Below are positions 11,559 through 53,869 of a DNA stretch of 64,000 nucleotides, in pieces (the stretch's first letter is position 1; the number at the start of each line of letters is the position of its first letter). The DNA is taken from contig JAJFIK010000009.1 in assembly GCA_021775005.1 (NCBI GenBank), positions 6,616 to 70,615 on the forward strand, written 5' to 3'. The notes under the pieces are model-generated. The model was not told where the DNA came from and did not search any database. It saw only the letters and a program-made list of their open reading frames with translations. Origin of the DNA: Rhodospirillales bacterium (GTDB lineage: Bacteria; Pseudomonadota; Alphaproteobacteria; JAJFIK01). Position numbers and translations under genes: made by a program.

Positions 11559-12428
11559 CTATCGCGCCAACCGCTTTGCGATGTCATCAAGTTGTTCCAG
11601 CGTGCTGTAGGACAACGTGACTTTGCCCGCCTCGCCCTTGTGGCTGATCTCAACTTTGAGGCCCAAAGCATCCATCAGGCGTTTTTCCAGCGCCCGCGTG
11701 TCGGCGTCTTTCGGTGCTGGCGTTTTACCCTTGCTCTTTGACTTAGCGCCAACATCGCCCCCGTCTTTCGCCAGCGCTTCGGCCTGACGCACAGAGAGCC
11801 CCTCGGCGATAACCTGTTTGGCAAGTTGCGCCACCTCCGGCGACATCATGATGGCGCGGGCGTGGCCGGCGGAAAGCCGTCCGTCCGCCAGCATCACCTG
11901 CACCGCTTCGGGCAACCCCAAGAGCCGAAGCGTATTGGCAATATGCGGCCGCGACTTGCCGATGTATTTCGCCAGCGCGTCTTGAGTGTAGGAAAACTCA
12001 TCCATCAGCTGGCGATAGCCCAAGGCTTCCTCGATGGCATTAAGATCAGTACGCTGAACATTTTCCACAATGGCGATTTCAAGCGCCTGGGAATCATCAA
12101 GCTCTTTCACCCGTACCGGCACGTTGTGCAGTTGCGCGCGCTGGGCGGCGCGCCAACGGCGCTCCCCGGCAATAATCTGATAACGCCCGGCAACACCGGG
12201 CTTTGGCCGCACGATGATGGGTTGGATCACGCCGCGTTCCTTCACGCTGGCGGTGAGGTCTTTCAAATCATCTTCAGAAAAAATGCGCCGGGGTTGATAG
12301 GGGTTGGGTTCCAAAAACTCCACCGGCATTTCGGTGACCTCAATCGGGCCCGCTGCAGCATCTTTCCGCGCGGGGGCGTCTTCTTCACCCATCAGGGCTG
12401 AGAGCCCGCGACCTAATCCTCTTGCCAT
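11559..12428 (-). CDS. parB: Chromosome partitioning protein ParB
   Basis: 289 aa with the GERRWRAA ParB box and HTH, adjacent to parA. Confidence 0.95.
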   Translation of the reverse strand: MARGLGRGLSALMGEEDAPARKDAAAGPIEVTEMPVEFLEPNPYQPRRIFSEDDLKDLTASVKERGVIQPIIVRPKPGVAGRYQIIAGERRWRAAQRAQLHNVPVRVKELDDSQALEIAIVENVQRTDLNAIEEALGYRQLMDEFSYTQDALAKYIGKSRPHIANTLRLLGLPEAVQVMLADGRLSAGHARAIMMSPEVAQLAKQVIAEGLSVRQAEALAKDGGDVGAKSKSKGKTPAPKDADTRALEKRLMDALGLKVEISHKGEAGKVTLSYSTLEQLDDIAKRLAR

Positions 12429-12475
12429 ATCACCGAAGCCATTGCTGGCTTTCCTTCTTGTTCGCTCGCGCGCAA

Positions 12476-13312
12476 TTACGCCGCGCGTAAATCTTTTTCC
12501 CGCTGGATGACTTCACCAGCGAGGCGGATATAGGCCTGACTGCCCGCGCATCTGAGATCATAAACCAGCGCCGGCATGCCGTGGCTGGGCGCCTCAGACA
12601 CCCGCACATTGCGCGGGATGACGGTCTTGTAGACCTTGTCGCCCATAAATTCGCGCACGTCCTTGGCCACTTGGTCAGAGAGATTGTTGCGCCGATCAAA
12701 CATGGTCAGCACGATGCCTTGTATCTCAAGCTCTGGATTGAGGGAGCCCTGCACCAGTTCTACGGTGCGAAGAAGTTGGCTCAAACCTTCCAACGCGAAA
12801 AACTCACATTGCAGCGGCACCATCACCGCGTTCGCTGCCGTCATGGCATTGATGGTGAGCAAGTTGAGCGATGGCGGGCAGTCGATCAGCACATAGGTAA
12901 ACGCCGCCGCGCTGCCCTGCGCGAATTGCTCAAACATGTCTCGGAGCCGAAATGACCGGCGTGGCGCACTGATGAGTTCCAACTCGGCTCCGGAAAGATC
13001 CACTGTGGAAGGCACAATGGAAAGGTTCGGGATCCTGGTCGGTTTCACCGCATCGGCAATGGGGGTCTCGTCCACCAGCACTTCATAGGTGGAAATCTCC
13101 CGCTCATTGCGCGGAATGCCCAGACCCGTGGAGGCGTTGCCTTGAGGGTCCATATCGATGATCAGCACCTTCTCGCCCACCGCCGCCAGCGCCGTGCCAA
13201 GGTTGATCGCCGTCGTGGTTTTACCCACCCCGCCCTTTTGATTGGCAATGGCCAGAATACGGGGCGATTTGCCCCGGCCCGGCTTTGCTTGCTCGCTTAT
13301 GTCGTCGGTCAT
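12476..13312 (-). CDS. parA: Chromosome partitioning ATPase ParA
   Basis: KGGVGKTT deviant Walker A motif, 278 aa. Confidence 0.95.
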   Translation of the reverse strand: MTDDISEQAKPGRGKSPRILAIANQKGGVGKTTTAINLGTALAAVGEKVLIIDMDPQGNASTGLGIPRNEREISTYEVLVDETPIADAVKPTRIPNLSIVPSTVDLSGAELELISAPRRSFRLRDMFEQFAQGSAAAFTYVLIDCPPSLNLLTINAMTAANAVMVPLQCEFFALEGLSQLLRTVELVQGSLNPELEIQGIVLTMFDRRNNLSDQVAKDVREFMGDKVYKTVIPRNVRVSEAPSHGMPALVYDLRCAGSQAYIRLAGEVIQREKDLRAA

Positions 13313-13337: not shown

Positions 13338-13973
13338 CTAAGCCGGGCGAAAGCCGGAAAGCTTGAGAATCTGCGCCTCTCCGGCGGTATGGCTGGGGAG
13401 GGCTTGGGCCTCAAATCTCCCCCAGGCGCGGGCGTTAGTCAATTCATCATCCGCGCTTCTGCCCTTTAGGAATAGGGCGATTCCCCCCTTACCTACAAAT
13501 GGCACCGCCAGGGGCAAAAGCTCAATGAGCGGGGCGAGGGCACGGGCTGTCACTACATCAGAGGCCCAGGGCTCAAGCACTTCCGCGCGGGCATTGTGCA
13601 CTTCAGCAGGGGCCCCGGTGGCGCGGATGGCCTCGCGCAGAAACACCGCTTTGCGGCTGTCACTCTCAATCAGATGGACTTTTAGCCCTGGACGATCGCG
13701 CCCCGAAATGGCCAGAGTGAGCCCTGGAAATCCGGCCCCACTGCCAAGGTCTGTGATCGTAGTGGCGTTCTCCGGGATCAGCGGCCAGAGCTGTGCTGAG
13801 TCCACCACATGGCGGGTCCAAACGTCTTTCAGGCTCGCTTTCGAGACCAAGTTGATTTTGGGCTGCCATTTTTCCAAAAGCGCCACATGGGCGCTGAGGG
13901 CGTCCAATGTTTCACGTGAAACAATTCCAAAAGATTTGAGCGCCTCGAGCGCTTCAGGCGGAACGGCGGACAT
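13338..13973 (-). CDS. rsmG: 16S rRNA (guanine527-N7)-methyltransferase
   Basis: GidB family, [13 protein letters not shown]-binding motif. Classic gidA-gidB-parAB order. Confidence 0.9.
13908..13923. promoter_or_regulatory. parS: parS centromere site (TGTTTCACGTGAAACA)
   Basis: Perfect 16-bp palindrome matching the canonical ParB-binding parS, inside the 5' part of rsmG. Confidence 0.85.
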
Positions 13974-15825: not shown

Positions 15826-15863
15826 GCCGGGCTATGTAGCGCGGGGGGCCGCCAACGCCAAGA

Positions 15864-15879
15864 TGTTTCACGTGAAACA
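15864..15879. promoter_or_regulatory. parS: parS centromere site (TGTTTCACGTGAAACA)
   Basis: Second perfect 16-bp parS palindrome, 39 bp upstream of the mnmG start. Confidence 0.85.
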
Positions 15880-15886
15880 CTGGCTA

Positions 15887-16555
15887 CTATGGCTGCGGTT
15901 TGGTACCTATCACTTGAGGCACATCTGAAAGCTCCCGACAGTACCATTCGGTATCCGCGCATATCCACCCTATTAATCCCAACAGCCTGTCATGTTCTCG
16001 GGTCGGTGATTTATCAATAATACAATAGTGGTGCGCGATCTTGTTGCGGAACAGTCGAAATCCTTCTGCTCGTTTCATTATCGTATCCAGAGTGGTACGC
16101 GCCGGAACATATGGGAAAGATCGACTGGTCCCGACCGCCCACAGGTGTGAGCTATATCTTGCGGTCAACATACTACACCAAAAATTGAGTGGAAGTGCGG
16201 CTAAGACCTGATCTGTCGTTGGTGTGCTTCTTCGCGCCTTTTGCTCCCTCTCTATTATTTGCTCTAGCTTTATCCGATGGTGCTCCACCAGAATTCCGTG
16301 AAAGCCCGTCTCCCAAGGCCATCTATCGCCAAATCTACGATAGATTGGCTTTGCAATGGTGTTTCGCAGGGATACTTCTCCAATATGTATTGGAAGGTTA
16401 AATGCTTGAGATAACTGAATGTTCCAAGCGTACAAGCGGATGGCGTATTGATCATCACCTTTTGCTAGGCCCAGATATCTTGAGAATCGCCCACTCGACA
16501 TTGTTGACCTAATTGTCGCCAATGTGCTGGGCGTTAGAGAGAATTCGTATTGCAT
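15887..16555 (-). CDS. Abi_2-family (AbiD/AbiF-like) abortive-infection protein, low GC
   Basis: N-terminal ...YAIRLYAW... and C-terminal ...RLFRNKIAHHYCII... match Abi_2 hallmark blocks. AT-rich codon usage. Inserted between mnmG and mnmE. Confidence 0.6.
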   Translation of the reverse strand: MQYEFSLTPSTLATIRSTMSSGRFSRYLGLAKGDDQYAIRLYAWNIQLSQAFNLPIHIGEVSLRNTIAKPIYRRFGDRWPWETGFHGILVEHHRIKLEQIIEREQKARRSTPTTDQVLAALPLNFWCSMLTARYSSHLWAVGTSRSFPYVPARTTLDTIMKRAEGFRLFRNKIAHHYCIIDKSPTREHDRLLGLIGWICADTEWYCRELSDVPQVIGTKPQP

Positions 16556-18430: not shown

Positions 18431-20470
18431 ATGCCCAATCGCCTTGCCAATGAGACCAGCCCCTACCTTTGTCAGCATGCTGATAATCCCGTCGACTGGT
18501 GGGCATGGGGGACGGATGCCTTTGCTGAGGCGAAGCGCACCGGCAAGCCTATTATCCTTTCCATTGGATATGCCGCCTGCCACTGGTGCCACATCATGGC
18601 CCATGAAAGCTTTGAAGATGAAGAAACCGCCAACCTGATGAATGCCGAATTTATCTGCATCAAAGTGGACCGGGAAGAGCGCCCTGATGTGGATCAGATT
18701 TACATGACCGCGCTGCATGTAATGCAGCAGCAGGGTGGCTGGCCCCTGACCATGTTCCTGACGCCAGACGGCGAGCCGTTCTTCGGCGGCACCTATTTTC
18801 CAATGGAAGCAGCCAATGGTTTGCCGCCGTTCCAACATATTCTGTTGAACATCGCCCAAGCTTGGAAAGAAAAGGGTGAAGACATCAAGGGTCAGGCCGG
18901 GCGCATCACTGAAGCGCTAAGGCAAATCGCGGCACATGACACCGCCGGCCAAGTTGATCAAGCCAGCCTTGATGCGGCGTTTGCCGAGATCGCAGGCAAT
19001 TTTGATACCCAGGCGGGGGGCATGAAAGGCGCGCCGAAATTTCCCCAGCTTCAGCTCTTGGATTTTGTTTGGCGTCAAGCGCTGCGTCATGGAGATCCAG
19101 CGCGGGAACTTCTTGTAACCTCCGCCCTTAAAGGCATGTCCATGGGCGGCATCTACGATCACTTGGGCGGTGGCTACAGCCGCTACTCGGTCGACCCGAT
19201 CTGGCTGCTGCCGCACTTTGAGAAGATGCTCTATGATAACGCCGGGCTTATTACCGCGCTCACGCGCGCTTGGCAGCGCACCCGCGATACTCTGTTTCGC
19301 GATACCGCAGAACAAACTGTCGCCTGGGTCTTGCGCGAAATGACCACGGAAATGGGCGGCTTTGCGTCTTCGCTTGATGCCGACAGCGAGGGCGTTGAAG
19401 GCAAGTTCTATGTTTGGACTGAAGCGGAAGTAACAGACGTCATTGGCGACAGTGACGAGGCGGTAATGTTCAAAGCAGCCTATGGCGTGGGGCCGGGCGG
19501 CAATTGGGAGGGCAAAACCATTCTCAACCGCCTCCACCCGCAACCCAATAACACCGAAGACAATCGTCAAACCCTCGCGCAAATGCGCCAGGCGCTGTTT
19601 GAAGTGCGCGAGGCGCGTGTGCATCCGGCACGGGATGACAAAGTGCTTGCTGATTGGAACGGCCTGATGATTGTCGCGCTTGCTGAGGCCAGCATGGCGT
19701 TCGACAAGCCCGCATGGCTTGAAGCCGCCGTGAGCGCCTTCACCTTTGTCACAAATACCATGAGTGATGGCGACCAACTCCGGCACGCGGCACTGGGGGG
19801 CGATGCCCGCCACCCCGCCGTTGCGGAAGATTACGCCAATATGATTGCCGCCGCGTTGACGCTTTATGAAGTCACCGGCGATGACACCTATCTCAGCCGC
19901 GCAAAAGCGTGGACGGGTGTCATGGACACATACTACATCGATGCCGATAAGGGCGGGTATTTCGCCACCCACAAAGATGCCGGTGATTTGATCGTCCGCA
20001 CACGGATGGTTTCTGATGAAGCCATGCCCAACGCCAATGGGGTGATGATCGGCAACCTCACCAAACTATGGCTGATGACCGGCAGCAATGACTACCGCAA
20101 AACCGCGCGCGCGGTGATGGACGGCTTTGCTGGCGAAGTGGAACGCAGTCCCACCAGTGTCGGCGGCTTTCTGGCGGGATGTGAATTTCATTTGCAGCCG
20201 GTGCAGGTTGCCATTATTGGCCGCCGCGAACAGGCTGGCACGGAAGCCCTCTTAAGCGCGGTCTTTGATGCCTCAATCCCCAGCCGCGTTCTTATGGTGG
20301 TGGACCCGCAAGAAAAATTGCCCAAGGGCCACCCCGCCCATGGCAAACAGCAAAAGAGCCACCAACCAACGGCCTATGTTTGCGTGGGCACCCAATGCTC
20401 CTTGCCGGTGACAGACCCCGCGGGCCTTGCCCAGGTGCTCGCCGTGGGCCCCCGTGTGGTTGCCGCATAG
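18431..20470 (+). CDS. Thioredoxin-domain protein, DUF255/YyaL family (N-acylglucosamine 2-epimerase-like C-terminal fold)
   Basis: N-terminal [17 protein letters not shown]...CHWCHxM thioredoxin-like module and a large alpha/alpha-barrel-like C-terminus, 679 aa. Confidence 0.85.
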
Positions 20471-20556
20471 CAGCCGCGCCCACTGGCCCCTTCACGTTTA
20501 CCTCATCCTCTGGCTAGACTGCGCGCAAATTTCAACACGCGCGGAGGCGACCCCCT

Positions 20557-21246
20557 ATGTTTGAGTTCAACACCACCATCAAAACCAAAGACGGCCAGGA
20601 CATGGGCGGCTATCTCGCGACCCCTGCGTCCGGCAGCGGCCCCGGCATTGTCGTGGCGCAGGAAATCTTCGGTGTGAATACTGTGATGCGCAATGTGGCC
20701 GACTGGCTTGCGGGCCAAGGCTTTGTGGCGCTGGTGCCCGATTTGTTTTGGCGCATTGAGCCCGGTATCGAGCTCACGGACCAAACCGAGGCCGAGTGGG
20801 CGCGGGCATTTGAGCTTTTTGGCGCCTTTGATATCGATAGCGGCATGGATGACATGCAGGCGGCCATCACCCACCTGCGCGGGCAAACCGGCAAGGTGGG
20901 CACCGTGGGATATTGCTTGGGGGGAAGTCTGGCGTATCTCTCCGCCACCCGCACAGATGCCGATGCCTCTGTGGGATACTATGGCGTGCGCATCAACGAA
21001 GCGCTGGCTGAGGCCGCGCAAATCTCAAAACCGCTTATGCTGCACATCGCCACCAAAGACGAATTCGTTCCGCCTGAAGCGCAAGCGGCAATCCACGAAA
21101 TTTTAGATGGCAATGACCACGCCACGCTGCATGACTATGTCGGCAATGATCATGCCTTCGCGCGGGTCGGCGGCGCGCACTTTGACCAAACCGCAGCCGA
21201 TCTTGCCAACTCCCGCACTATCGCATTCTTCAAGGCGAATCTTTAA
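20557..21246 (+). CDS. Dienelactone hydrolase family protein
   Basis: 229 aa with GYCLGG nucleophile elbow and His in the C-terminal half. Confidence 0.8.
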   Translation: MFEFNTTIKTKDGQDMGGYLATPASGSGPGIVVAQEIFGVNTVMRNVADWLAGQGFVALVPDLFWRIEPGIELTDQTEAEWARAFELFGAFDIDSGMDDMQAAITHLRGQTGKVGTVGYCLGGSLAYLSATRTDADASVGYYGVRINEALAEAAQISKPLMLHIATKDEFVPPEAQAAIHEILDGNDHATLHDYVGNDHAFARVGGAHFDQTAADLANSRTIAFFKANL

Positions 21247-21251
21247 AGGCC

Positions 21252-22217
21252 ATGCCCATGCACCGTGCCGCGCCGTGGGCCCTGGTGGCAGCACTGCTCG
21301 TCCTCTCCACAATAGCCAGCATTTGGTGGGGAAGAGCGACCCAAGCCGGCACACCTGTCGTTGTCTTCGACTTGTCGCAGACCTCTCTCCCTGCGTTCTT
21401 CGCGTGTATGGATGGTCGCAGCTTGCTCATCGCCGCGCATCGCGGTGGCCCCATCGGGGCGCGGCCTGAGAACGGACTGTCAACCCTCAGCGCGACCCTT
21501 CACGCCGTCCCCGCGCTTTTGGAAATCGACATCTCCAAAACCTCAGATGACGTTCTGATCCTGTTTCATGATGAGCAGTTGGAGCGGACCACAAACGGCA
21601 CCGGCCCGGTTTATCGGCCCTGGCGGGAGCTCCGCGACCTGCAACTTCGCGGGCTAAACCGCCAGTTCACCGCCGACCATATCCCCTTGCTGAGTGAGGT
21701 GCTCGCTTGGGCCCATGGCCGCGCCATCCTACAGCTTGATCGCAGGGGTGAAGCGCACTGGTCAGACATCGCGGCAGCGGTTCAAGACGCGGGGATGGCC
21801 CCCCACGTCATCGCAATCGCCTATTCCATCGAAGAGGCAGCAACTATTCACAGCCTTCTGCCCAACACCATGATTTCTGTGCCCATCAACAGCTACAGCG
21901 ATCTCACCAGCTTAAGACGGGCGAGCATCCCCCTGAACCAAGTGCTCGCCTGGACGGGCACAAGTGAGATTGATGAGCGCCTCAACGCTTCGCTTGATGG
22001 CGCGGGCGTGCCCGTAATTCACGGGGTGTTTGAGCGCCAAAGCGACCCGTGGGACCTGCCGCTGGCGGTGGACCGGGTGGCGCGCGCCGGCCATGATCGG
22101 GGCATAGATATATTATCTGTCAATCAACCCGCTGGCGTCTGGGCGCTTCTTGATTCTCTTGACCCCGCGGCCACATCCACTGACCTCTATCAATCCTGCC
22201 TCAATGGAGCCCCATGA
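21252..22217 (+). CDS. Glycerophosphodiester phosphodiesterase (GDPD) family protein, secreted
   Basis: Signal peptide. HRG...EIDISKTSDDVLILFHDEQLERTTNG matches the GDPD catalytic block. Confidence 0.65.
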   Translation: MPMHRAAPWALVAALLVLSTIASIWWGRATQAGTPVVVFDLSQTSLPAFFACMDGRSLLIAAHRGGPIGARPENGLSTLSATLHAVPALLEIDISKTSDDVLILFHDEQLERTTNGTGPVYRPWRELRDLQLRGLNRQFTADHIPLLSEVLAWAHGRAILQLDRRGEAHWSDIAAAVQDAGMAPHVIAIAYSIEEAATIHSLLPNTMISVPINSYSDLTSLRRASIPLNQVLAWTGTSEIDERLNASLDGAGVPVIHGVFERQSDPWDLPLAVDRVARAGHDRGIDILSVNQPAGVWALLDSLDPAATSTDLYQSCLNGAP

Positions 22218-22218
22218 C

Positions 22219-23199
22219 ATGACCCAAATCAAAGCTGTTCGTATTCACGAGACCGGCGGACCGGAGGTAATGAAGCTGGAAACCGTGGCCCTCCCCGATC
22301 CCGGGCCCGGCGAAGTGCGCGTGAAACTGGGCGCGGTCGGGCTCAACTTCATCGACACTTATCAACGCTCTGGGCTCTACCCGGTGCCATTGCCTTCCGG
22401 CCTCGGCCTTGAGGGGGCGGGCACTGTTACGGCCATTGGCGAAGGCGTCAGCACTTTAACGCTCGGTGATCGTGTGGCCTTTGGCACCGGGCCCATCGGC
22501 GCTTACGCCGAAGCCATCAACGTGCATGAAACCCGCGTGGTGAAGCTGCCGGACACAATCTCAGATGAAACCGGCGCCGCCATGATGCTGCAAGGCATGA
22601 CGGCGCAATACCTGCTGCGGCAAACCTTCTTTGTGCGCGAAGGCGACACGATTTTGGTCCACGCCGCTGCGGGCGGGGTCGGGCTCATCGCCTGCCAATG
22701 GGCAAAACATTTGGGGGCGACGGTCATCGGCACCGTGGGCTCAGAAGAAAAGGCCGCGCTTGCCCGCGCCAATGGCTGCGACTTCCCCATATTGTATCGC
22801 GACGAAGATGTCGCGGCCCGCGTGCGCGAAATCACCGACGGCAAAGGCGTGCCGGTGGTCTATGATTCCGTGGGCAAGGACACCTTGATGGCCTCCCTCG
22901 ACTCGCTCTCTCCCCTTGGGCTGTTTGTCACGTTTGGCAATGCCAGCGGCCCAACGGGCCCCATTGATCCGCTTCTCTTGTCCGCCAAGGGCTCACTTTT
23001 CATGACCCGGCCGACGTTGTTCAATTACACCGCCACCCCCGAAGCGCTTCAGCGCACGGCGGCGGACTTGATCGGTGTTGTCTCCTCCGGTGCGGTGAAA
23101 ATCGCCATCAATCAAAGCTACAAGCTGGATGACATCGTAGCGGCGCATGTGGATCTGGAAGGGCGCAAGACCACCGGCGCGACGGTAATCCTTCCGTGA
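22219..23199 (+). CDS. qor: NADPH:quinone oxidoreductase (MDR/Zn-ADH superfamily)
   Basis: Start at MTQIKAVRIHETGGPEVM. GxGxxG Rossmann AAGGVGL motif. Confidence 0.85.
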   Translation: MTQIKAVRIHETGGPEVMKLETVALPDPGPGEVRVKLGAVGLNFIDTYQRSGLYPVPLPSGLGLEGAGTVTAIGEGVSTLTLGDRVAFGTGPIGAYAEAINVHETRVVKLPDTISDETGAAMMLQGMTAQYLLRQTFFVREGDTILVHAAAGGVGLIACQWAKHLGATVIGTVGSEEKAALARANGCDFPILYRDEDVAARVREITDGKGVPVVYDSVGKDTLMASLDSLSPLGLFVTFGNASGPTGPIDPLLLSAKGSLFMTRPTLFNYTATPEALQRTAADLIGVVSSGAVKIAINQSYKLDDIVAAHVDLEGRKTTGATVILP

Positions 23200-24044
23200 G
23201 CAAACCCTTTGCCCTTGCCACCACCACGGAAGATTTTCTTCACGGTGTCACTGAAGACGATTTGATTGTTGAGGCTCTTGAGGCAAAGGGCGCAGCGGCG
23301 CGCAAGATTATCTGGCATCAATCGCCGCCGGAAAGCCTTAGCAAACAGACCGTGGTTATCCGCACCCCGTGGGATTACTTTCAGCGCCTGGAGGAATTTC
23401 TGGCATGGCTTCGCGCTATCGATGCCGGTGAAGCGCGCCTGCTTAATCCGCTCAGCGTGATCGAGGCGACCATCGACAAGCGCTACCTGGTGGACATGAT
23501 CGGCAAGGGATATGCGCTGCCCAAAACCATGCTTTGCCCCACCACGCCTGTTGAGCTTGCCGCGGCGCTTAAAGATCCCGCCTTCGCTGAGGCCGTCATT
23601 AAACCTTGCGTCAGCGGCGGCGCCATCGGCTTGCGCAAAATCATCGCCCATGATCCCGCGAGTTGGGAACACCTCGATACTAAGAGCCCACACATTTTGC
23701 AGGCGTTTCTGCCGGAGATTGAAACCAAAGGCGAGATCTCCTTTGTCTTTTTCGGCGGCAGCTTTAGCCATGCCATTTGTAAACGCCCCAAGCCCGGCGA
23801 CATCCGTGTACAGATCGAATGGGGCGGCACGGTAGAGCAAATCCATCCCGATGCGGATTTGGTTGAACAAGCGGCAGCGTTTCTGCGCTTCTTGCCCGCG
23901 CCTACGACCTATGCCCGCGTCGATGTGGTGGAAGTGGCGGGGCGCTTGCTGCTCATGGAATTGGAAGTGATCGAGCCTGAGCTGTTCCTCACCCAAGTGC
24001 CTGCTGCTGCAGTGCGGTTTGCGGCGGCGATGCTCAGGGCTTAG
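23196..24044 (+). CDS. ATP-grasp domain protein (RimK/GshB-like)
   Basis: IKPCVSGGAIGL glycine-rich ATP-grasp loop, ~280 aa. Start codon overlaps the qor stop. Confidence 0.55.
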   Translation: MSKPFALATTTEDFLHGVTEDDLIVEALEAKGAAARKIIWHQSPPESLSKQTVVIRTPWDYFQRLEEFLAWLRAIDAGEARLLNPLSVIEATIDKRYLVDMIGKGYALPKTMLCPTTPVELAAALKDPAFAEAVIKPCVSGGAIGLRKIIAHDPASWEHLDTKSPHILQAFLPEIETKGEISFVFFGGSFSHAICKRPKPGDIRVQIEWGGTVEQIHPDADLVEQAAAFLRFLPAPTTYARVDVVEVAGRLLLMELEVIEPELFLTQVPAAAVRFAAAMLRA

Positions 24045-24087
24045 ACTTTACCCAACGCAGCAGGTCTTGTTGAAAGGCGGGCTCAAG

Positions 24088-24990
24088 ATGCGGTGGTCTC
24101 AACTTTCATTGCTGATCGGCATTGTCGCGCTTTGTTGGGGTGGCAACGCGAGCCCCCAAACCCTTGAGGACTATTGTGCGGCGGACCCTGGCCTTGCCAG
24201 TTGCGATCCCAATGCGCCAGGAACTCTGGAAGAGTACTGCCAAGCCTACCCTGATTGGGCCGGCTGTCAGGATAACGCCGGCCTGACAACGTGCGAGCGC
24301 AATCCTGATTTCGCGGGCTGCACGGATGAGGAAGAAGAGCCCCCGATCTATATTACCGTAGACCCCGACGGCGACAGTGAAGAGTTTGAACCGGCTGATC
24401 CTGAGGAGGTCGCTCAGGATGAAGAGGACAATGCGGAGATCGATGGCTTTGTCGAAGGGCTAACAGACGGCGATGAAGACACTGAGTTACTTGACGAGGA
24501 TGAAACGCCTGAGTTTGACGCCGATGCATACAACGAATTAATCGAAGCCGTTGATCGCGAACTGGAAGCCGAAAGAGCATGCGCCAATCTTGCCCGGCTT
24601 ACCGCGTTGAGTGAGCAACTCGAATTTGAAGCCGACGAGGCAAACGAACGCTATATCAGTTGGAATCGGTCAGAAATACCGCCCAGCGAAGAAGATGCAT
24701 CCACTCTTGAAAACGAGTTGGCTAGTTTCAGTACCGAATTCAGCCGTGTGAACAGGCAAATTGAAGATCTGGAAGCCTCAGGCGAAACAGTGCCCCCCTT
24801 GCTGCGGCAACAAAGGTCTTTCATTGGCGACGAAATCATAAGAGTCATGGATGAGTTGGATAGGCAAGATGGGCAAAGCCGTACCTGGCGAATTGAACGG
24901 AGCCTACATGTGCAGCGCATGAATGCAATCGCCGAACGTCGCGTTGCCGTGCAGCGCCAGATTGATGAGATCAATGCGGACTGCCCCTAA
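24088..24990 (+). CDS. Secreted, highly acidic protein with four CxnC mini-repeats and C-terminal coiled coil
   Basis: Signal peptide MRWSQLSLLIGIVALCWGGNA. Repeats YCAADPGLASC / YCQAYPDWAGC / TCERNPDFAGC. Long D/E-rich linker. Confidence 0.5.
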   Translation: MRWSQLSLLIGIVALCWGGNASPQTLEDYCAADPGLASCDPNAPGTLEEYCQAYPDWAGCQDNAGLTTCERNPDFAGCTDEEEEPPIYITVDPDGDSEEFEPADPEEVAQDEEDNAEIDGFVEGLTDGDEDTELLDEDETPEFDADAYNELIEAVDRELEAERACANLARLTALSEQLEFEADEANERYISWNRSEIPPSEEDASTLENELASFSTEFSRVNRQIEDLEASGETVPPLLRQQRSFIGDEIIRVMDELDRQDGQSRTWRIERSLHVQRMNAIAERRVAVQRQIDEINADCP

Positions 24991-25133
24991 CGAACAGGGA
25001 TTTTGGGCACGACGTTGGTCACCGGGCAGCGTCGCTAACCCCTTACGTTGCAAGTGCTTTATCCCGCCCGGTTGACGGGCAATCGACAATCCGCCACGCT
25101 TATAGCTAACGGGCTTAATGGGGGGCGGGGATT

Positions 25134-27395
25134 GTGCGACTGGAACCGGTAACACTGGCGGAAGAAAGCCTTCTTGCGGCAGTGCGCCAAGGGGAACCGT
25201 GGACGGGGGAATTTCATCGGAAGTTTCTGCGCCGGCGACCCAAAGGCCCTGCGCCCGACGTGCACCAAGGTCAAGATGCGGACGCCAAAAGTAAGACCGC
25301 TGCATCCGGCGCGTCTGGTAAGCACGACGCAGAACGCACAGTGAGCGCCGATCTCATCCGCAAACTGATACTGCAAGACAATGATCGAATGGCCAGAGGC
25401 AACCCCTCGAGGGAATACGACGTCACTCGCAAGACGCGGGCAGAGAAGGACTGGCTGCAAATATCAGCACGCGGGCTCATCCTTGAGGGTGAAAGCAAGA
25501 CAGACAAAACCGCAATTCCGTTTCGCCCTCTCATCATCGGGTCATTGGACTTGTCCGCCGTCGAGTTTCCTAGGCCTCTAAAAATTGTAAACTGCGATTT
25601 TGAAGACAGCCTGATCCTTGACGAAGCACACCTCAAGAGTCTCAACCTGTCAGGCTCAGAGTTTACGCAGGAGGAGCCCGAGGGCGCCCTCATATCCGGT
25701 GGTCAGGTGCGCATTGATGCCAATCTGTGCTTCAATAAATTGAAAGTTGCCGGTATCAATCTTTATGGCATTCAAATTGGAGGCACCCTCGAACTAAGTG
25801 GTGCGCGGATTTCATCCTGGTCCCCTAATGAACACGCAATTGAAATGGATGGCGCTACAATTAGCGGCACGGTAGCCTTTGCGGACAAGTGCGTTGTAGA
25901 TGGCGGCATAAGCCTGGTTCGCGCAAGAATTGGAGGAACGCTAAATTTCATAAGCGCAAGAATATGCCACAAGCATAGCGCCATAGATGCAGCCCACCTC
26001 AGGGTCGGCGGGTCGGTCTACTTTCAGGCAGAGTTTTCGTCTAAAGGAGAACTCTCATTCTCCAAAGCAGTAATTCAAGGCGACCTAATCGCAAATGGCG
26101 CAACATTCAGGGCTGATCACGGTCTCTGCTTCAATGGTGATTCAATAACAATTGATGGGCGCTTGCACCTTCAAGAAAAATTCCGCTCGTTCGGGACCAT
26201 ACGAATGATTGCTGCCAGGGTGCAGAATGAGTTTTCGATTTCGGATTCAATTCTTGAATCCCGAGGGCCGTTTGAGCGGGCAATATCAGCTGAAAGGCTC
26301 GACCTAAAAAATTCATTGTACATTCGTGGCGCCACAACAATCACAGGCCAAACGGACTTCGGCGATGCTCACATTAATGGCAATGTGCACATATATGATT
26401 CGGAGCTGAAACCACAAAACGCAAGAAACGAAGGTGTAGTTTTATCATTTAGTGGCGCGCAAATCGTAGGGGATCTTAATCTCGCAGACCCCTACTTTTC
26501 TCGGTGGCAATCGAATCAAGGTATTCTTGGTGGAACCGATCTTCGCGACTGTTCAGCTCGCACACTTTGCGACGGTCATAGCAAACCTCCAGCACTCCAC
26601 CGCGCGGTCAATCGCATTAGCCAATCTGCGTTGAAGCGCTCGATCATCAGTTCCGCCATTGAACGACCGGTCCTTCTCGATGGCTTTGTCTATGATCGAA
26701 TAAGCCGCCAAGCGGCCACAGCACCAGCTTCCAGAATCGCATGGTTGAAACGACAGCCTAAGCAATTCTTGAGAGGGGACGGATTTGCGCCGCAACCGTG
26801 GGATCAACTCATTCACGTCTACCACAAAATGGGTATGCCGCGCCAAGCTCGCCAAATTGCTATTGCCAAAGAAGATCACGTGGTTGCCCATGGCGGTCTT
26901 AGGGGGCTGGCACGAATTTGGCGGGCATTTCTCGGCTGGTCGGTCCGCTATGGTTACTCGGCTACTCGCCCCTTAGCGCTGAGCATGTTTCTGATTCTTT
27001 TCGGCTGGATGTCATTTGCCGCGGCTGATCAGGCCGGATGGATGACAGAGAGCCCACCAATAGTTTCCATTCAGCGCGATGCGCCCGGCGCGATGGGTGC
27101 CGTACCCCCTTTTAATGCGTTTATGTATTCAGTCGACGTATTCCTGCCCCTCGCTGAGTTTGGGCAGCAAAACGCATGGCGTCCCGGGGAAACGGGTGGG
27201 CCCATCCACCTGCAAGACTCAATACCACTTGGGCAGAACTGGATTCCAGACGGTGCTTGGGGCCTTGACACTATTTTGACCCATTGGGTGCGAGGCGGAG
27301 GCCTCAAAACCCTGCAGTGGTTGATGATCGCAGTTGGGTGGATCGCTTCTGCTTTGATCGCGGCAAACTTATCCGGCGTTATGAAACAGGACTAA
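25134..27395 (+). CDS. Large beta-helix-like repeat protein (~11 repeats of ~23 aa) with C-terminal two-TM membrane domain, low GC
   Basis: Recurring ...G(A/T)xIxGxLxF/L... units. C-terminal FVYDRI...FAPQPWDQLIHVY... followed by two hydrophobic helices. Start codon uncertain. Confidence 0.55.
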   Translation: MRLEPVTLAEESLLAAVRQGEPWTGEFHRKFLRRRPKGPAPDVHQGQDADAKSKTAASGASGKHDAERTVSADLIRKLILQDNDRMARGNPSREYDVTRKTRAEKDWLQISARGLILEGESKTDKTAIPFRPLIIGSLDLSAVEFPRPLKIVNCDFEDSLILDEAHLKSLNLSGSEFTQEEPEGALISGGQVRIDANLCFNKLKVAGINLYGIQIGGTLELSGARISSWSPNEHAIEMDGATISGTVAFADKCVVDGGISLVRARIGGTLNFISARICHKHSAIDAAHLRVGGSVYFQAEFSSKGELSFSKAVIQGDLIANGATFRADHGLCFNGDSITIDGRLHLQEKFRSFGTIRMIAARVQNEFSISDSILESRGPFERAISAERLDLKNSLYIRGATTITGQTDFGDAHINGNVHIYDSELKPQNARNEGVVLSFSGAQIVGDLNLADPYFSRWQSNQGILGGTDLRDCSARTLCDGHSKPPALHRAVNRISQSALKRSIISSAIERPVLLDGFVYDRISRQAATAPASRIAWLKRQPKQFLRGDGFAPQPWDQLIHVYHKMGMPRQARQIAIAKEDHVVAHGGLRGLARIWRAFLGWSVRYGYSATRPLALSMFLILFGWMSFAAADQAGWMTESPPIVSIQRDAPGAMGAVPPFNAFMYSVDVFLPLAEFGQQNAWRPGETGGPIHLQDSIPLGQNWIPDGAWGLDTILTHWVRGGGLKTLQWLMIAVGWIASALIAANLSGVMKQD

Positions 27396-31344: not shown

Positions 31345-32406
31345 TCAGCCTTGCCAGCTGGTAACAAGATCCACCAGATCAGCCACATGCTCTGGCGGCG
31401 TTTCCGGCACAATGCCGTGGCCCAGGTTAAAGATGTGCCCGCCCCCCTTGAAGCTCTCAAGAATGGCTCTGGCTTCGCGCTCAAGTGCCTCCCCGCCCGC
31501 CACAAGGGCGAAAGGATCAAGATTGCCCTGCACCGGGCACAAGGGCTGCACATGTTCTACGGCCCAGTCCCTTGGAACGCCGGTATCAAGGCCCACAGCA
31601 GCGACCCCCGTGCCCTGGATATAGCCAGGGATTGCGGGACCCGCTCCTCTGGGGAAACCAATGATGGGGACGCCGGGATGACTTTTACCCAGTGCCGCCA
31701 CAATTTGTTTTGTCGGCGCGATGACCCAGCGCTCAAACTCAGCTGTGGGCATGTTCGCGGCCCAGCTATCAAACAGCTGCAAAACCTCCGCCCCGGCGTC
31801 TACTTGCTCACGCAGATAAATCACCGTGGCATCGACTACCAGATTGATGAGACTCTGAAACCCGGCAGGATCTCTTGCCGCCCAAATGCGTGCTGCACGC
31901 TGGTCTGGAGAGCCTCGCCCCCCCACCATGTAGGTCGCTACCGTCCATGGGCTTCCTGCAAACCCAATGAGCGCCACATGGTCTGGCAGCTCGCTTTTAA
32001 GCCTGTCCAGGGTTTCAAACACCGGCGCAAGGTGGCCGGAAATATTATCCAGTGATAGTGCTGCCAATTCAGCCTCGCTTGAAATGCATTCCAGCACCGG
32101 CCCTTCACCCTCTTGAAATGAGACCTTCTGCCCCAGCGCATCAGGGATCAAAAGAATATCTGCAAAAAGGATCGCCGCATCGAGATTAAATCGCCGCAAG
32201 GGCTGCAAGGTTACCTCTGCTGCCAGCTTAGGATTATAGCAAAGCTCTAGGAAGCTCCCGGCCCCTTTGCGCACTTCACGATACTCAGGCAGATAGCGCC
32301 CCGCTTGGCGCATGAGCCAAATGGGTGGCCGCTCAACCACACTCTTCTCAAGGACTTTGAGAAGCCGCTTGTTTGAACGTTCCAGGGTTTGTTGGGAGGC
32401 GGACAA
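31345..32406 (-). CDS. hemE: Uroporphyrinogen decarboxylase
   Basis: PIWLMRQAGRYLPEY URO-D signature 1. Confidence 0.95.
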   Translation of the reverse strand: MSASQQTLERSNKRLLKVLEKSVVERPPIWLMRQAGRYLPEYREVRKGAGSFLELCYNPKLAAEVTLQPLRRFNLDAAILFADILLIPDALGQKVSFQEGEGPVLECISSEAELAALSLDNISGHLAPVFETLDRLKSELPDHVALIGFAGSPWTVATYMVGGRGSPDQRAARIWAARDPAGFQSLINLVVDATVIYLREQVDAGAEVLQLFDSWAANMPTAEFERWVIAPTKQIVAALGKSHPGVPIIGFPRGAGPAIPGYIQGTGVAAVGLDTGVPRDWAVEHVQPLCPVQGNLDPFALVAGGEALEREARAILESFKGGGHIFNLGHGIVPETPPEHVADLVDLVTSWQG

Positions 32407-32788
32407 TCTATTCCCTCTCTATCTTAAAGAATCTTAGTAGTTGTAGTAGGGAGGGCTGAGATTGGGGATCAAATGTTTTCCCGCTGTTTTCCCGTGACAT
32501 CTTAGCTTTCATACGACAGGTGCGGGAGTTCCCCAAGCCTGGGGAGAAAAAAAGCAGCCCCCGAGCAATCAAGGGGTTAGCAGATGGGATGCCGCGAAAA
32601 CCTCCCAAATAGTTTTCAAACCACAACGCTTCCCTCGTTATGATTGCTGACGAGCAACTTGCGCTCCCTCTTAGGGTATAACGTGTCTATGGGAGTGCTT
32701 TGTTATGATTGCAGGCCGCGGTGCAAACCGATCATCCAATGTGTGAGCGCTATGGACTTTTGGTCCGTGCTTATCCACAAATTTGCCC
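32407..32788. other. oriC: Candidate chromosomal replication origin (oriC) in hemE / DUF299 intergenic region
   Basis: Synteny identical to Caulobacter Cori (hemE | CC0001-DUF299-maf-aroE-coaE-dnaQ, with parAB-gidAB-trmE-rho on the other side). Perfect DnaA box TTATCCACA at 32771..32779. AT-rich stretch 32415..32450 with TTAA-N7-TTAG. Tandem tgttttcccg x2. Duplicated gttatgattgc motif. Confidence 0.6.
32771..32779 (+). promoter_or_regulatory. DnaA box (TTATCCACA), perfect consensus
   Basis: Exact 9-mer immediately upstream of the DUF299 gene start. Confidence 0.6.
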
Positions 32789-33628
32789 ATGACCACTGAT
32801 CAGCCCGGAACGGGAAAACCATTTCACCTTCACCTCGTTTCTGACGCGACGGGGGAAACCCTTGCCGCGGTGGCGCGCGCTGCCGCGGTTCAGTTTGAAG
32901 ACCACCAGGCGGTTGAACATCTCTATGCTCTAGTGCGCACCGTGCGGCAGCTTGATCGGGCGCTGACCGAGATTGAAGCCCACCCCGGGATCGTCATGTT
33001 TACCATGGTGAGCGAAGACTTGCGCGATAAGCTCGAAGCGCGCTGCGCGGAAATTGCCATGCCCTGCGTCGCGGTTCTTGACCCTGTGTTGCGCGCCTTC
33101 GAGCAATTCCTTGGCGCTGTGCAAACCCACCGGCCCGCCGGCCAGCACCAAATGGATGATGCCTATTTCGAGCGCATCGAAGCCCTCAACTACACCATGG
33201 CCCACGATGATGGGCAGAACATAGAAACCCTGGGGACTGCGGATGTGGTCCTTGTGGGCGTCAGCCGGACCTCAAAAACACCGACGTGTATCTATCTCGC
33301 CAACCGCGGGGTGAAGGCTGGCAATGTGCCGTTGGTGCCGGGAATGCCGCTGCCGGAGCTTTTAAAGAACAGCAGCGCCCCCTTTGTGGTAGGGCTGACC
33401 GTGGCACCAGAGCGTCTGGTGCGGGTGCGCCGGAACCGTTTGTTGTCTCTCAATGAAAACGTTGAGACCGATTACACCGACCCCGACATGGTCAAGCGTG
33501 AAGTCGTGGACGCGCGGCGCATGTTCACCCAATCCGGCTGGCCGGTGATTGATGTCTCGCGCCGCTCAATCGAGGAAACCGCCGCCGCTGTGCTCAATCT
33601 GCTCACTGACCGGCGGCCCGCCTCATGA
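32789..33628 (+). CDS. PEP synthetase/pyruvate phosphate dikinase regulatory protein family (DUF299, bifunctional kinase/pyrophosphorylase)
   Basis: FHLHLVSDATGETL... N-terminus and P-loop GVSRTSKTPT. Ortholog position of Caulobacter CC0001. Confidence 0.85.
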   Translation: MTTDQPGTGKPFHLHLVSDATGETLAAVARAAAVQFEDHQAVEHLYALVRTVRQLDRALTEIEAHPGIVMFTMVSEDLRDKLEARCAEIAMPCVAVLDPVLRAFEQFLGAVQTHRPAGQHQMDDAYFERIEALNYTMAHDDGQNIETLGTADVVLVGVSRTSKTPTCIYLANRGVKAGNVPLVPGMPLPELLKNSSAPFVVGLTVAPERLVRVRRNRLLSLNENVETDYTDPDMVKREVVDARRMFTQSGWPVIDVSRRSIEETAAAVLNLLTDRRPAS

Positions 33629-39881: not shown

Positions 39882-40444
39882 TGCGCCGCAAGGGTCGCCC
39901 ATTGCACGGCGAAGAACGCAGCCTCTGGAACCACGTGGCGCGGACCGTCAATCCGCGACATCCTAATGTGCGCCCTGCCCAAGATGATGCCTTGCCGCTA
40001 GCTCACAACAAAGCACAGCCGCACAAGCCAGTGCTCACTTCAAAACCGGCACTGCTGAAATCAACCCCCGCCCGCCCTGCCCCGCAATTACATATTGATG
40101 GTGCCACCGCGCGCCGCCTCAAACGCGGGCAAGCGCAGATCGATGCAAAGCTTGATCTGCATGGCATGCGCCAAACAGAAGCTCATGATGCGCTGGTGAG
40201 TTTTATCCTGGGGGCGCAAGCCCGCGGCGCACGCTGCGTGCTTGTCATCACTGGCAAAGGCACAAAGGGCGCCGGGCATTCCAACCCTTACGAGACGCCG
40301 GGCCCGGGTATTTTGAAATCCCGGCTCGGGCAATGGCTCGCGCAAGCTCCCCTGAGCGCCATCACATATGGATTGCGCAAAGCCCACCCGCGCCACGGCG
40401 GCTCCGGCGCGCATTACGTCTTTATACGGAAGATCAAAGGTTAG
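39881..40444 (+). CDS. Smr domain protein
   Basis: LDLHGMRQTEAHDAL...VLVITGKG Smr/MutS2 C-terminal nuclease-like domain. Confidence 0.7.
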   Translation: MRRKGRPLHGEERSLWNHVARTVNPRHPNVRPAQDDALPLAHNKAQPHKPVLTSKPALLKSTPARPAPQLHIDGATARRLKRGQAQIDAKLDLHGMRQTEAHDALVSFILGAQARGARCVLVITGKGTKGAGHSNPYETPGPGILKSRLGQWLAQAPLSAITYGLRKAHPRHGGSGAHYVFIRKIKG

Positions 40445-42317
40445 GTGCCACATGCAAACGGGCCCCGCTGCTTGGGGCGGCCCGTTTTTTGTTTTCAGGA
40501 ACCGCTGCGCCCGCCCCCGGCTGTGCGTTGGGAATGCGCGCCATGATGCAGCCCTTGAACTGGAAGGTGCCCTTTTTGCCAGCGCGCTTTGGCGATCCTC
40601 CGCCCCTCCAGGCGTCGGCGCTCCACATTGAATTGGTGCCGGTATGGGATTTGCGTTGGGCGTCAACGGCGACGTCCTTCAGCGCTTTCTGAACGGTCGC
40701 ATCACCAATAAGCTCTGCATGTTCATTGCGGGCGAGATAGGCCCTGAGCTCGATGAACGCCCGCTCGCCTTCATCGCGGCTGCGCGGCGGCAGCACCTGC
40801 ACCATTGTTGCGTCCACGTCGGTTGCGCCGAGCAACTTGCTTAGAAGCGGATAAATGGACGTCTCCCCCTTGGGAGGCGTCAGCACGATAAACGACCGGT
40901 AGGGGCTGAGCAGCCGACGCAGGCCAGTTTCTGCGTCAACGGCAAACAGATGATCCATCGCCGCCCGGACGCAGGTTGTCGCCTCAACCATCATGGCGCG
41001 GCGCTCAGGGGGCAGATCGGTGTAAGGCGCAGGGTCGCGGAAGACGGGGAACCATTCAAACGGGGCGGCGCCCCAGAACCCGTCCCGATAGCTTCGCTGG
41101 TTCAGCAACCGGACAATGGCCTCCAAATCCGGCAGTTTCAGCTTTTCAGTTTTCTTGAGCTTCTCGCGGTCCTTCTTAGGAGCCTTGTTCAAGGCAGCCT
41201 TTTGTTCGTCTTTCAAGGCAGCCATGAATTCCCGAATAAGGGCGCCGGCGAAAAAGTATCTGTCGCTTTTAAGCAGACCATCACGCTTTGCAGCAGCTTC
41301 CCGTCCGCGCAGCTTGGCGCATTCGCTCAGAGCTTTAAAAGTGGCCCTGTCTTTGATGTCATTGAACTGGCCGGTCTGTTTGGCAATCTGCAGAAAAATG
41401 TATCGCGCAGCGGCTTTGTCGACGTCTTTTGGCTTTTGTGCCTTGCGCGACAAAAGCAGATAGCGCGTCAGGTTCCCTTCGCCATAATCCTGAATGCCGC
41501 GCACGAGGCGTGCGTCGGTTGCCGGGGTGTTGGAGCCGTGATCGGCCCCTGCCCGTTCCGCCTCTGCCTCCGCGTCTTCGTTGTCGGCTTCAGCGTTGGG
41601 AAGTTGCGCTGCGGATGTCTTACGCACCGCGCCGCCGACGCGGACGAGATCGAACATGCGTGCCGAATAGGCCGAGCCGATGGCCGCCACCTTTAGCGAA
41701 TAGGGTGGGTTCATCACCTCGACATTCAGCTCGTCGGTTTCCGTCTTGATGCTCTTTGCCGCCGCCGCCGTGCAGGTCATGGTCACGCGCCGGGCATTGG
41801 GCATGGTGCGGGAAATGAAATCGGCGCACTGGCGCAGGCCCTGATCGTCTGAGCGGATTTCCGAAATCGCGCTCAGGATCGCTTCCTGCTTCTCGGGCGC
41901 GCCATCAAGGCGATCCTGAATCGCCAGGAGCTCGAGTTCTTCGTCTGGCCGGAACACCCCAAAGCGTTGTGCCAGCGATTTGGTGACCAGCACATGGTGC
42001 TCGACCTGCTGATAGACATCGTCAATCACATGCACGCCGTTTTGGGCGATCAGCGACAGTGGCTCCACTACCATGCCGGTCCGGTTGTTATGGACGGCAA
42101 CCACTGCGGCGTCAGCGCGGCCTTCGGTCAGAAGCTCAAACACTTCCTCATAGGTGGGCTGCGGTGCAGGCTTGTACTTGGAGGCAAATTCCGTCCGCTG
42201 GGTCACGGCAAAGCCGCACGCGCCCTGTTCTCCCTGGCAGGCAAGGTACTCCGTTGCTCTGTCTGCAGGTTCAGCCATGGCCGGTTCGGGTGCCTCGCAT
42301 CGACGTGGTAAATTCAT
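40434..42317 (-). CDS. Prephenate-dehydratase (PDT)-domain protein fused to ~380-aa uncharacterised Lys/Arg-rich C-terminal region
   Basis: N-terminal ~250 aa align to the PheA PDT fold (YLACQGEQGACGF ~ VAYQGxPGAYSE; AAVVAVHNNRTGMVVEPL ~ GVVPIENSxxGxV). No ACT domain. An acidic linker is followed by an unknown domain. Flanked by a MITE copy upstream. Confidence 0.55.
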   Translation of the reverse strand: MNLPRRCEAPEPAMAEPADRATEYLACQGEQGACGFAVTQRTEFASKYKPAPQPTYEEVFELLTEGRADAAVVAVHNNRTGMVVEPLSLIAQNGVHVIDDVYQQVEHHVLVTKSLAQRFGVFRPDEELELLAIQDRLDGAPEKQEAILSAISEIRSDDQGLRQCADFISRTMPNARRVTMTCTAAAAKSIKTETDELNVEVMNPPYSLKVAAIGSAYSARMFDLVRVGGAVRKTSAAQLPNAEADNEDAEAEAERAGADHGSNTPATDARLVRGIQDYGEGNLTRYLLLSRKAQKPKDVDKAAARYIFLQIAKQTGQFNDIKDRATFKALSECAKLRGREAAAKRDGLLKSDRYFFAGALIREFMAALKDEQKAALNKAPKKDREKLKKTEKLKLPDLEAIVRLLNQRSYRDGFWGAAPFEWFPVFRDPAPYTDLPPERRAMMVEATTCVRAAMDHLFAVDAETGLRRLLSPYRSFIVLTPPKGETSIYPLLSKLLGATDVDATMVQVLPPRSRDEGERAFIELRAYLARNEHAELIGDATVQKALKDVAVDAQRKSHTGTNSMWSADAWRGGGSPKRAGKKGTFQFKGCIMARIPNAQPGAGAAVPENKKRAAPSSGARLHVAPNL

Positions 42318-53866: not shown

Positions 53867-53869
53867 GGT

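Follow-up and report, generated by a model that had tools for sequence, protein, structure and literature searches.

A probable hemE-adjacent chromosomal origin of replication in an alphaproteobacterial contig

The DNA analyzed here is a stretch of 64,000 nucleotides (64 kb, in the following the window) from contig JAJFIK010000009.1 of a Rhodospirillales bacterium. The element in question is the gap of 382 bp (32407-32788) between its divergently oriented genes hemE and DUF299, for which a function as chromosomal origin of replication (oriC) had been proposed in a first-pass annotation of the sequence. The genes of this neighborhood (hemE, PpsR-like/DUF299, maf, aroE, coaE, dnaQ, rho, mnmE, mnmG, rsmG, parA, and parB) were assigned by their NCBIfam matches, and the coordinates of all features are collected in Table 1. 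The TTG start codon of hemE (32406) is kept in the closest relative and the ATG of the DUF299 gene at 32789 is conserved, with an in-frame TTG being located further upstream at 32783. To the right, DUF299 heads a maf-aroE-coaE-dnaQ string, which is followed by secB, fxsA, a Tim44-like gene, mltA, smr, and hslUV. To the left, hemH, hemJ, a methyltransferase gene, and rho are located on the strand of hemE. The order which emerged from the family searches, parB-parA-rsmG-mnmG-(222-aa open reading frame)-mnmE ... rho-(methyltransferase)-hemJ-hemH-hemE / DUF299-maf-aroE-coaE-dnaQ, bears out the earlier claim of a gene order like that around the Caulobacter origin Cori. The window also contains two perfect parS sites (TGTTTCACGTGAAACA), which had likewise been pointed out before, while only 0.01 such sites would be expected by chance in 64 kb. 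Together with parAB they are found 17-21 kb from the gap. The position of the gap is thereby that of the hemE-adjacent alphaproteobacterial origins of the Cori type: the origin of Caulobacter has been mapped to hemE/duf299 (PMC6393856) and that of Rickettsia prowazekii was placed between the hemE and DUF299 genes (PMC1914354). As origin prediction already makes standard use of hemE as an indicator gene (Ori-Finder, PMC2275245), the gap would be a further case of the known hemE-type origins.

Table 1. Genes, sites, and conserved segments in and around the hemE-DUF299 gap (numbering of the window; conserved segments have at least 75% identity in the eight-way alignment)
Feature	Position	Strand	Remarks
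parB-parA partition genes	11559..13312	-	TIGR00180 and ParA-family matches
parS site 1, perfect palindrome	13908..13923		inside rsmG, at its 5′ end; distance to the candidate origin 18.5 kb
parS site 2, perfect	15864..15879		61-bp gap upstream of mnmG
hemE (uroporphyrinogen decarboxylase), left boundary	31345..32406	-	TTG start; TIGR01464, E = 5e-119
Conserved segment	32409-32420		putative hemE ribosome-binding site
Putative hemE ribosome-binding site AGAGAGGGAA	32411..32420	-	within conserved segment 32409-32420
AT-richest stretch of the gap	32418..32434		candidate start of the unwinding element; contains GAATC 32429-32433
Conserved segment	32435-32452		TAGTAGTTGTAGTAGG, array
Trinucleotide array TAG TAG TTG TAG TAG, TAGTAGTTGTAGTAG	32435..32449	+	DnaA-trio-like (5′-TAG-3′ = 3′-GAT-5′)
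13-nt spacer GGAGGGCTGAGAT	32450..32462		G+C-rich beside the array; decayed second DnaA box
Conserved segment	32460-32481		ATTGGGGATCAAATGTTTTC, containing box L
DnaA box L, TGATCCCCA, 7/9	32463..32471	-	plus strand TGGGGATCA, directly 3′ of the array; GGGGAT invariant in eight relatives
TGTTTTCCCG twice, period 11	32474..32494	+	degenerate plus-oriented DnaA-box positions
TCCCCA (32530-32535, +) facing DnaA box M, TTCTCCCCA (32540-32548, -, 7/9)	32530..32548
Conserved segment	32537-32547		box M
Perfect IHF consensus AATCAAGGGGTTA (WATCAANNNNTTR)	32567..32579	+	predicted site
Weak DnaA-box position N, plus strand AGGGTATAA, 6/9	32673..32681	-	invariant G..A.AA columns in the alignment
Conserved segment	32751-32763		TGGACTTTT
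Conserved TGGACTTTT	32753..32761	+	possible -35 of the DUF299-operon promoter
Conserved segment	32768-32784		box R
DnaA box R, perfect TTATCCACA	32771..32779	+	sole perfect box in 64 kb; ends 9 nt before the conserved ATG
DUF299 / PpsR-like kinase-pyrophosphorylase gene, right boundary	32789..33628	+	NF003742, E = 2e-97; PF03618

The species representatives include no close genome, with the best match having 61% protein identity, and the nearest named relatives (approximately 64% identical in the DUF299 protein) belong to the Parvibaculaceae. The relatives used for a phylogenetic footprint were those obtained from metagenome and assembly look-ups, with DUF299 proteins being 71-83% identical. 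In all of them hemE is located divergently upstream of DUF299. In the resulting eight-way alignment the relatives average 49% identity to the window across the gap, and conservation is concentrated in the six segments given in Table 1.

The perfect DnaA box near the DUF299 gene (box R), already noticed in the first-pass annotation, was confirmed. It is identical in seven of eight relatives, with L067 having TTATTCACA instead, and it is also perfect in L068 and L069. Its distance of 9 nt to the ATG is the same in every relative aligned. For Caulobacter, moderate G-boxes (TGATCCACA) and weak W-boxes with the core TCCCCA have been described (PMC4285127, PMC4468827), and box L at the hemE end of the gap combines the start of a G-box, TGATCC, with the core of a W-box. 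Box M reads TGGGGAGAA on the plus strand of the window and TGTGGGAAA in L062-L064. Position N has a better fit in relatives, in which it occurs in the 7/9 versions TGCGTATAA, TCGGGATAA, and GGTGAATAA, and together with the invariant columns this suggests that it may be a DnaA box as well. Similarly, the second copy of TGTTTTCCCG is replaced in relatives by better plus-oriented boxes (TTATCCCAA, TTATCCAAA, TTTTCCGCA, TTTTCCCCA). Another nonamer, tcatccaat (32732-32740), had been counted as a 7/9 box. It matches TTATCCACA in only six of nine positions, falls outside the list of sites with up to two mismatches and is not conserved, and was thus ruled out as a DnaA box. Overall, the gap contains one perfect box and two 7/9 boxes, with three to four box positions being conserved.

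Three of the 24 TCCCCA motifs of the whole window are located in the gap. With box R included, it contains four TCC[A/C]CA cores, a number which none of the remaining 382-bp windows of the 64 kb attains. When all intergenic regions with a length of 120 bp or more are compared, the gap has the most of these cores, a near-lowest G+C content and divergent flanks. A longer intergenic region (53867-54462, 596 bp) includes four nonamers within two mismatches, compared with three in the hemE-DUF299 gap, but at a lower density. None of the other intergenic regions joins boxes, low G+C content and divergent flanks, and they were rejected as candidate origins. The highest density in the window of nonamers with up to two mismatches (four to five per 382 bp) is found inside mnmG (14711-15100), where sites such as TTATCCAGA (15047) and TTACCCACA (15090, minus strand) occur. 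Boxes with up to one mismatch are about twice as frequent across the window as expected (15 vs. 7.4).

The raw GC skew of the window tracks the orientation of the genes and is for this reason uninformative, so that a strand-controlled analysis of third codon positions was used instead. G was compared with C at the four-fold degenerate sites of each gene, with one term for the coding strand and one for the leading or lagging strand, and every switch point was considered. The change-point peaks exactly at the hemE/DUF299 boundary, with a likelihood-ratio test (LRT) value of 13.5 and with G being enriched on the inferred leading strand. The probability of such a maximum occurring anywhere was 0.017 when genes were permuted and 0.038 when counts were permuted. 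Using all third positions gave the same peak (LRT 14.9), while first and second positions exhibited no signal. In L068, a relative with 71% identity of which 10 kb of flank per side were analyzed, the peak is found at the same boundary (LRT 12.8).

With a probability of roughly 0.8, the 382-bp gap represents the oriC of this chromosome and is of the ordinary hemE-adjacent type. The proposal of a probable chromosomal origin at this site is hence supported by synteny, by the density of DnaA sites, by the conservation of sites within the gap, by the change-point of the strand bias and by the repetition of the latter in L068. In position, box cluster, AT-richness, and skew switch, the gap agrees with the features by which hemE-adjacent origins are recognized (PMC1914354).

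The most conserved element of the gap, the TAGTAGTTGTAGTAG array followed by TGGGGATCA, had been overlooked in the first-pass annotation. The G+C content of the gap is 0.49, compared with approximately 0.58 for the window, and the lowest value over 40 nt (0.30) is found at the hemE end. Close to the start of hemE, AGAGAGGGAA is, judged by its distance of 5-14 nt to the downstream TTG, the putative ribosome-binding site. On the plus strand, the AT-rich stretch is then followed by the 5′-TAG-3′ repeats, the 13-nt spacer and TGGGGATCA. The GAATC at 32429-32433 is the sole GANTC (CcrM-type) site of the gap, and the same alignment column is occupied by GAATC or GATTC in eight of eight relatives. 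The array, (T[A/T]G)x5, occurs only once in the 64 kb and was obtained in none of 200 Markov simulations. Across relatives its T and G are fixed, with the G at every third position being invariant, while the central base is either A or T.

This arrangement resembles the basal unwinding system (BUS) of bacterial origins, which comprises a DnaA box with up to two mismatches, a spacer of 0-16 nt with a mode of 13 and at least three NAN trios with the consensus 3′-GAT-5′, the trios being located on the 5′ tail (PMC8287927). The preferred captured pair is the dinucleotide 3′-GA-5′, and 5′-TAG-3′ is the commonest trio (PMC10721633). By the published rule, the central adenine is the conserved base of the trio (PMC8287927, PMC10721633). 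In the left block of the gap, TGATCCCCA has two mismatches, the spacer has the commonest published length and starts G+C-rich, and the 3′-GAT-5′ trios are on the strand that would become the 5′ tail, with AT-rich DNA beyond. With the rule relaxed to at least four of five trios, the array is the only match in the window. Box L is oriented toward the trios as in the origins of B. subtilis and E. coli. In L033, L065, and L068, the position of the spacer reads GCGGGATAA, and GCGGGATAA-C-GGGGATCAA there forms the canonical layout of tandem boxes, the second of which has decayed in the lineage of the window. Tandem boxes in TGTGGATAA orientation with the same hemE-proximal layout also occur in Sphingomonadales, Hyphomonadaceae, and Parvibaculum loci. 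Among 23 hemE-DUF299 regions, five pass the strict BUS rule at their hemE end, while 0.5 would be expected from shuffles. At the homologous place, TAT GAT TAT TAG is found in L002 and L014 (Hyphomonadaceae) and TAT TAC TAT TAG in L007. Provided that the gap is an origin, its left block appears rather likely to be a DnaA-box/DnaA-trio unwinding module.

At the opposite end, conserved TGGACTTTT is followed by an interval of 18 nt that includes box R, by CAAATT and, 5 nt further on, by the ATG. No purine-rich ribosome-binding site between box R and the ATG could be found in the window or in any aligned relative. TGGACTTTT and CAAATT could be read as the -35/-10 pair of a putative promoter for a leaderless DUF299 message starting at the ATG at 32789. 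If so, box R would serve the origin as its right anchor and, at the same time, the operon ending in dnaQ as an operator.

From these elements a mechanism can be proposed, in which DnaA would bracket the gap by binding to boxes L and M on the hemE side, both oriented toward hemE, and to the oppositely oriented box R on the DUF299 side, with weaker sites and a candidate bend by integration host factor (IHF) in between. A DnaA oligomer starting at box L may then extend over the 13-nt spacer onto the plus-strand TAG TAG TTG TAG TAG and may open the adjacent AT-rich 17-30 bp. As this AT-rich stretch is located directly upstream of the putative hemE ribosome-binding site, the hemE leader should cross it. 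The hemE promoter would have to lie inside or beyond the left block, so that hemE transcription would cross the predicted site of unwinding. As box R overlaps the apparent leaderless promoter of DUF299-maf-aroE-coaE-dnaQ, its occupancy by DnaA probably tunes this operon. CtrA would not bind, and the conserved GANTC site at the junction of AT-rich stretch and array may couple the gap to methylation by CcrM.

Several points weigh against the gap being the origin. The cluster of boxes is thin, as all sites apart from the perfect and the two 7/9 boxes match in 6/9 positions or worse. Under the classical rule of at least four boxes, it is thin if sites are limited to one mismatch at most. The AT-rich stretch is short and is surpassed in AT content elsewhere in the window, and the cumulative curve of the raw skew reaches lower values at 57-64 kb than at 33 kb. 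The evidence from the skew spans 64 kb of the chromosome. The searched open reading frames of the window included no dnaA, which would fit a dnaA-proximal origin elsewhere. The conservation of the left block could in part originate from the hemE promoter and leader, and that of the right block from the DUF299 promoter. A scan with the strict BUS rule, by which three or more NAN trios have to follow one another, yielded no match in the window, because the third trio is TTG and the array is thereby split into two plus two consecutive NAN. Strict membership in this system was thus rejected. Finally, L069 (Parvibaculum sp., 64%; L069:1-20828) and L070 (65%, G+C content 0.67; L070:1-20840), with the hemE/DUF299 gap near 9.4-10.0 kb in each, do not exhibit a third-position switch at the gap. 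The plus-strand genes of their right flanks are as C-rich at third positions as those of their left flanks, and the 20 kb look like a single replichore. In L070 the plus-strand genes range from -0.22 to -0.40 on both sides, and minus-strand genes are near zero or positive in both genomes. The L069 gap nevertheless contains eight DnaA boxes within two mismatches, of which six are within one. Either a shift of the origin in these two genomes or dominant local effects may be the cause. The hemE gap need therefore not be the switch point of the skew throughout the wider group. As the same orthologs were compared in all four genomes, the sign of the right flank is specific for the genome and not for the genes, and the fact that window and L068 have the opposite sign gives more weight to the switch in the lineage of the window.

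In a rival reading, the gap is only a divergent, DnaA-regulated promoter region for hemE to the left and the DUF299-maf-aroE-coaE-dnaQ string to the right, or else a relic of an ancestral origin, with the active origin being located elsewhere, for example beside dnaA outside the window. The location of the single perfect box 9 nt from the ATG, within a plausible core promoter and with TGGACTTTT one promoter length upstream, agrees with this idea, and so does the -35-like TTGATC which box L contains on the hemE strand. The missing switch in L069 and L070 further implies that a position next to hemE does not guarantee an active origin in the wider group. On the other hand, the strand-corrected change-point falls on the gap in both the window and L068, and in the comparison of orthologs the right flanks of these two are opposite in sign to that of L070. 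A -10 element would not look like an array with a period of 3 nt and an invariant G, and a sigma-70 scan found no promoter on the hemE strand there. The three to four conserved box positions also exceed what a simple operator would need. Taken together, this makes a mere promoter region or relic quite improbable. A milder departure leaves the origin in place and regards the TAGTAGTTGTAGTAG/GGGGATCAAATGTTTT block as owing its conservation mainly to a role as promoter and leader of hemE or to some other regulator binding there, with unwinding proceeding without trios. Most close relatives fail the strict threefold NAN rule just as the window does, and a variable middle base (A or T) between fixed T and G is the reverse of the central-adenine rule (PMC8287927, PMC10721633). 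Conservation also runs past the 9-bp box into AAATGTTTT, and replication in Caulobacter needs the hemE promoter inside the origin (PMC6393856). However, the geometry in spacer, strand, polarity and AT-rich neighbor fits a BUS, the repeated trio and its captured pair are the favored ones (PMC10721633), and clearer trio arrays occupy the homologous place in L002, L014, and L007. Unwinding without trios is hence considered rather unlikely, although it deserves more weight than the promoter or relic.

An origin under the control of CtrA as in Caulobacter appears extremely improbable. One TTAA and one TTAG do occur in the AT-rich stretch, and the first-pass annotation had read them as a CtrA-like TTAA-N7-TTAG pair. 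The spacing between TTAA (32424-32427) and TTAG (32434-32437) is, however, N6, which makes the pair unsuited to CtrA, and the TTAA is not conserved. No TTAA-N7-TTAA was found in the gap of the window or in that of seven close relatives, even with one mismatch allowed. The 64 kb contain a single full CtrA consensus, TTAACAATATCTTAA (3096-3110), which is located between two Porin_4 genes (1849-3006 and 3221-4384). CtrA sites, a feature of the Caulobacter and Rickettsia origins that is not universal, are thus lacking in the gap, and CtrA control was rejected on the basis of the spacing, the missing conservation and the absence of boxes in eight genomes. The chromosomal oriC of S. meliloti likewise has no CtrA-binding motifs, and CtrA does not bind to it (PMC4433202). 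The best reading of the gap is therefore that of a putative hemE-type oriC without CtrA input, as in S. meliloti. A more far-reaching version of this reading, distinctly doubtful, would regard the T[A/T]G x5 array as a lineage-specific variant of the DnaA-trios in which the flanking T and G are fixed instead of the central adenine. Together with the single surviving box and the GANTC site at the edge of unwinding, it would imply that methylation rather than CtrA gates both opening and hemE transcription.

The preferred reading of the gap as a hemE-type oriC can be compared with characterized origins. With Cori it shares the boundary genes and the wider neighborhood, with the right end reaching the start of duf299, as well as weak DnaA boxes that have the W-box core TCCCCA and a G-box-like TGATCC with T-to-G at position 2. 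Further similarities are the location of the AT-rich stretch toward hemE, a hemE leader or promoter that would extend into the origin, a candidate IHF-type site, and a GANTC site. Unlike Cori, which has five CtrA boxes, five GANTC sites and no perfect E. coli-type box, the gap has no CtrA box, one GANTC site and one perfect box. In addition, dnaA is not nearby and no conserved counterpart of CcnA was found. The Rickettsia version differs by its CtrA sites, while the oriC of S. meliloti is alike as an alphaproteobacterial origin without CtrA motifs (PMC4433202). In comparison with the BUS of B. subtilis and other bacteria, the box with up to two mismatches, the 13-nt spacer starting with G+C, the 5′-TAG-3′ repeats on the strand that would become the 5′ tail and the AT-rich DNA beyond are alike. 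The TTG as third trio, the decay of the second tandem box in this lineage, and the variable central base with fixed T and G are different. Work by Sibley and colleagues from 2006 is said to have placed the oriC of S. meliloti next to hemE. In terms of E. coli oriC, box L (top strand of TGTGGATAA type, beside the unwinding element) is presumably R1-like and the far, opposite strong box R presumably R4-like, with weak sites and the candidate IHF site in between. The outer boxes span approximately 317 bp here and approximately 190 bp in E. coli oriC, whose 13-mer repeats, GATC clusters and flanking genes have no equivalent in the gap.

The location of oriC anchors the orientation of replichores, estimates of growth rate from metagenome coverage and the design of vectors for an uncultured lineage, and is otherwise of modest value. 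The footprint provides a minimal model, accessible to testing, of how an alphaproteobacterial origin may be built without CtrA sites, consisting of box L, the TAG array, and the AT-rich stretch, with a perfect box on a putative promoter opposite. Of specialist interest are the array departing from the central-adenine rule, the single conserved GANTC site, and the skew behavior of the Parvibaculum-like relatives. If the reading of a variant trio and methylation were true, then, together with L069 and L070 lacking the switch, hemE-type origins would be mechanistically and positionally less uniform in Hyphomicrobiales-like lineages than assumed.

The gap also contains two direct repeats and a hairpin. 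The 10-nt repeat reported earlier does exist, with TGTTTTCCCG starting at 32474 and 32485, but it is not strictly tandem, as 1 nt separates the copies. The 11-nt repeat GTTATGATTGC is present at 32637 and 32702 as described, with the distance from start to start being 65 bp instead of 66 bp. It carries a -10-like TATGAT, and the sole sigma-70-like match (32615-32644, plus strand) uses its first copy. As this repeat is absent from the relatives in the alignment, it was rejected as a core element of the origin. The perfect IHF consensus is one of three matches in the 64 kb, where 1.47 would be expected, and only its (A/T)(A/T)TCAA part is common to the three closest relatives. It is overlapped by a terminator-like minus-strand hairpin (32575 to 32545), CCCTTGATTGCTCGGGGG, after which CTGC and T7 come. 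Caulobacter encodes the small RNA CcnA within its origin. A CcnA-like small RNA in the gap was rejected, as the hairpin is not conserved in seven relatives and yielded no Rfam match.

Outside the gap, a few further regions of the window deserve mention. The minus-strand open reading frame at 40434-42317 encodes 627 aa, of which only the first approximately 230 residues include a prephenate-dehydratase domain, with the long C-terminal remainder having no family match. Between 50590 and 58592, seven open reading frames without a Pfam match (50590-51603, 51619-52125, 52693-53505, 54463-54975, 55530-56282, 56206-56886, and 57792-58592) flank the only tRNA gene of the window, tRNA-Arg(CCT) at 54351-54437. 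This region has a strongly positive AT skew (0.12-0.17) and a number of intergenic stretches with a very high AT content. The region resembles a genomic island at a tRNA gene, and no integrase was identified in it. parS site 2 is located between mnmG and the 222-aa open reading frame (15887-16555; region 15826-16555), which has no NCBIfam or Pfam match and breaks the usual adjacency of mnmG and mnmE. In the relative L068, a DUF6489 gene adjoins mnmE, being located between mnmE and the DUF255 gene. Between mnmE and rho, a block of approximately 9 kb (18431-27395) consists of plus-strand genes for a DUF255 thioredoxin-domain protein, a dienelactone-hydrolase-like protein, a GDPD-like protein, a zinc alcohol dehydrogenase and a 753-aa pentapeptide-repeat protein, along with two open reading frames without a family. 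All of these genes would be head-on to the leftward fork if the origin is located at 32.4 kb. As the part with the DUF255, hydrolase and alcohol dehydrogenase genes is kept at the same place in L068, L069, and L070, this part is not a recent insertion.

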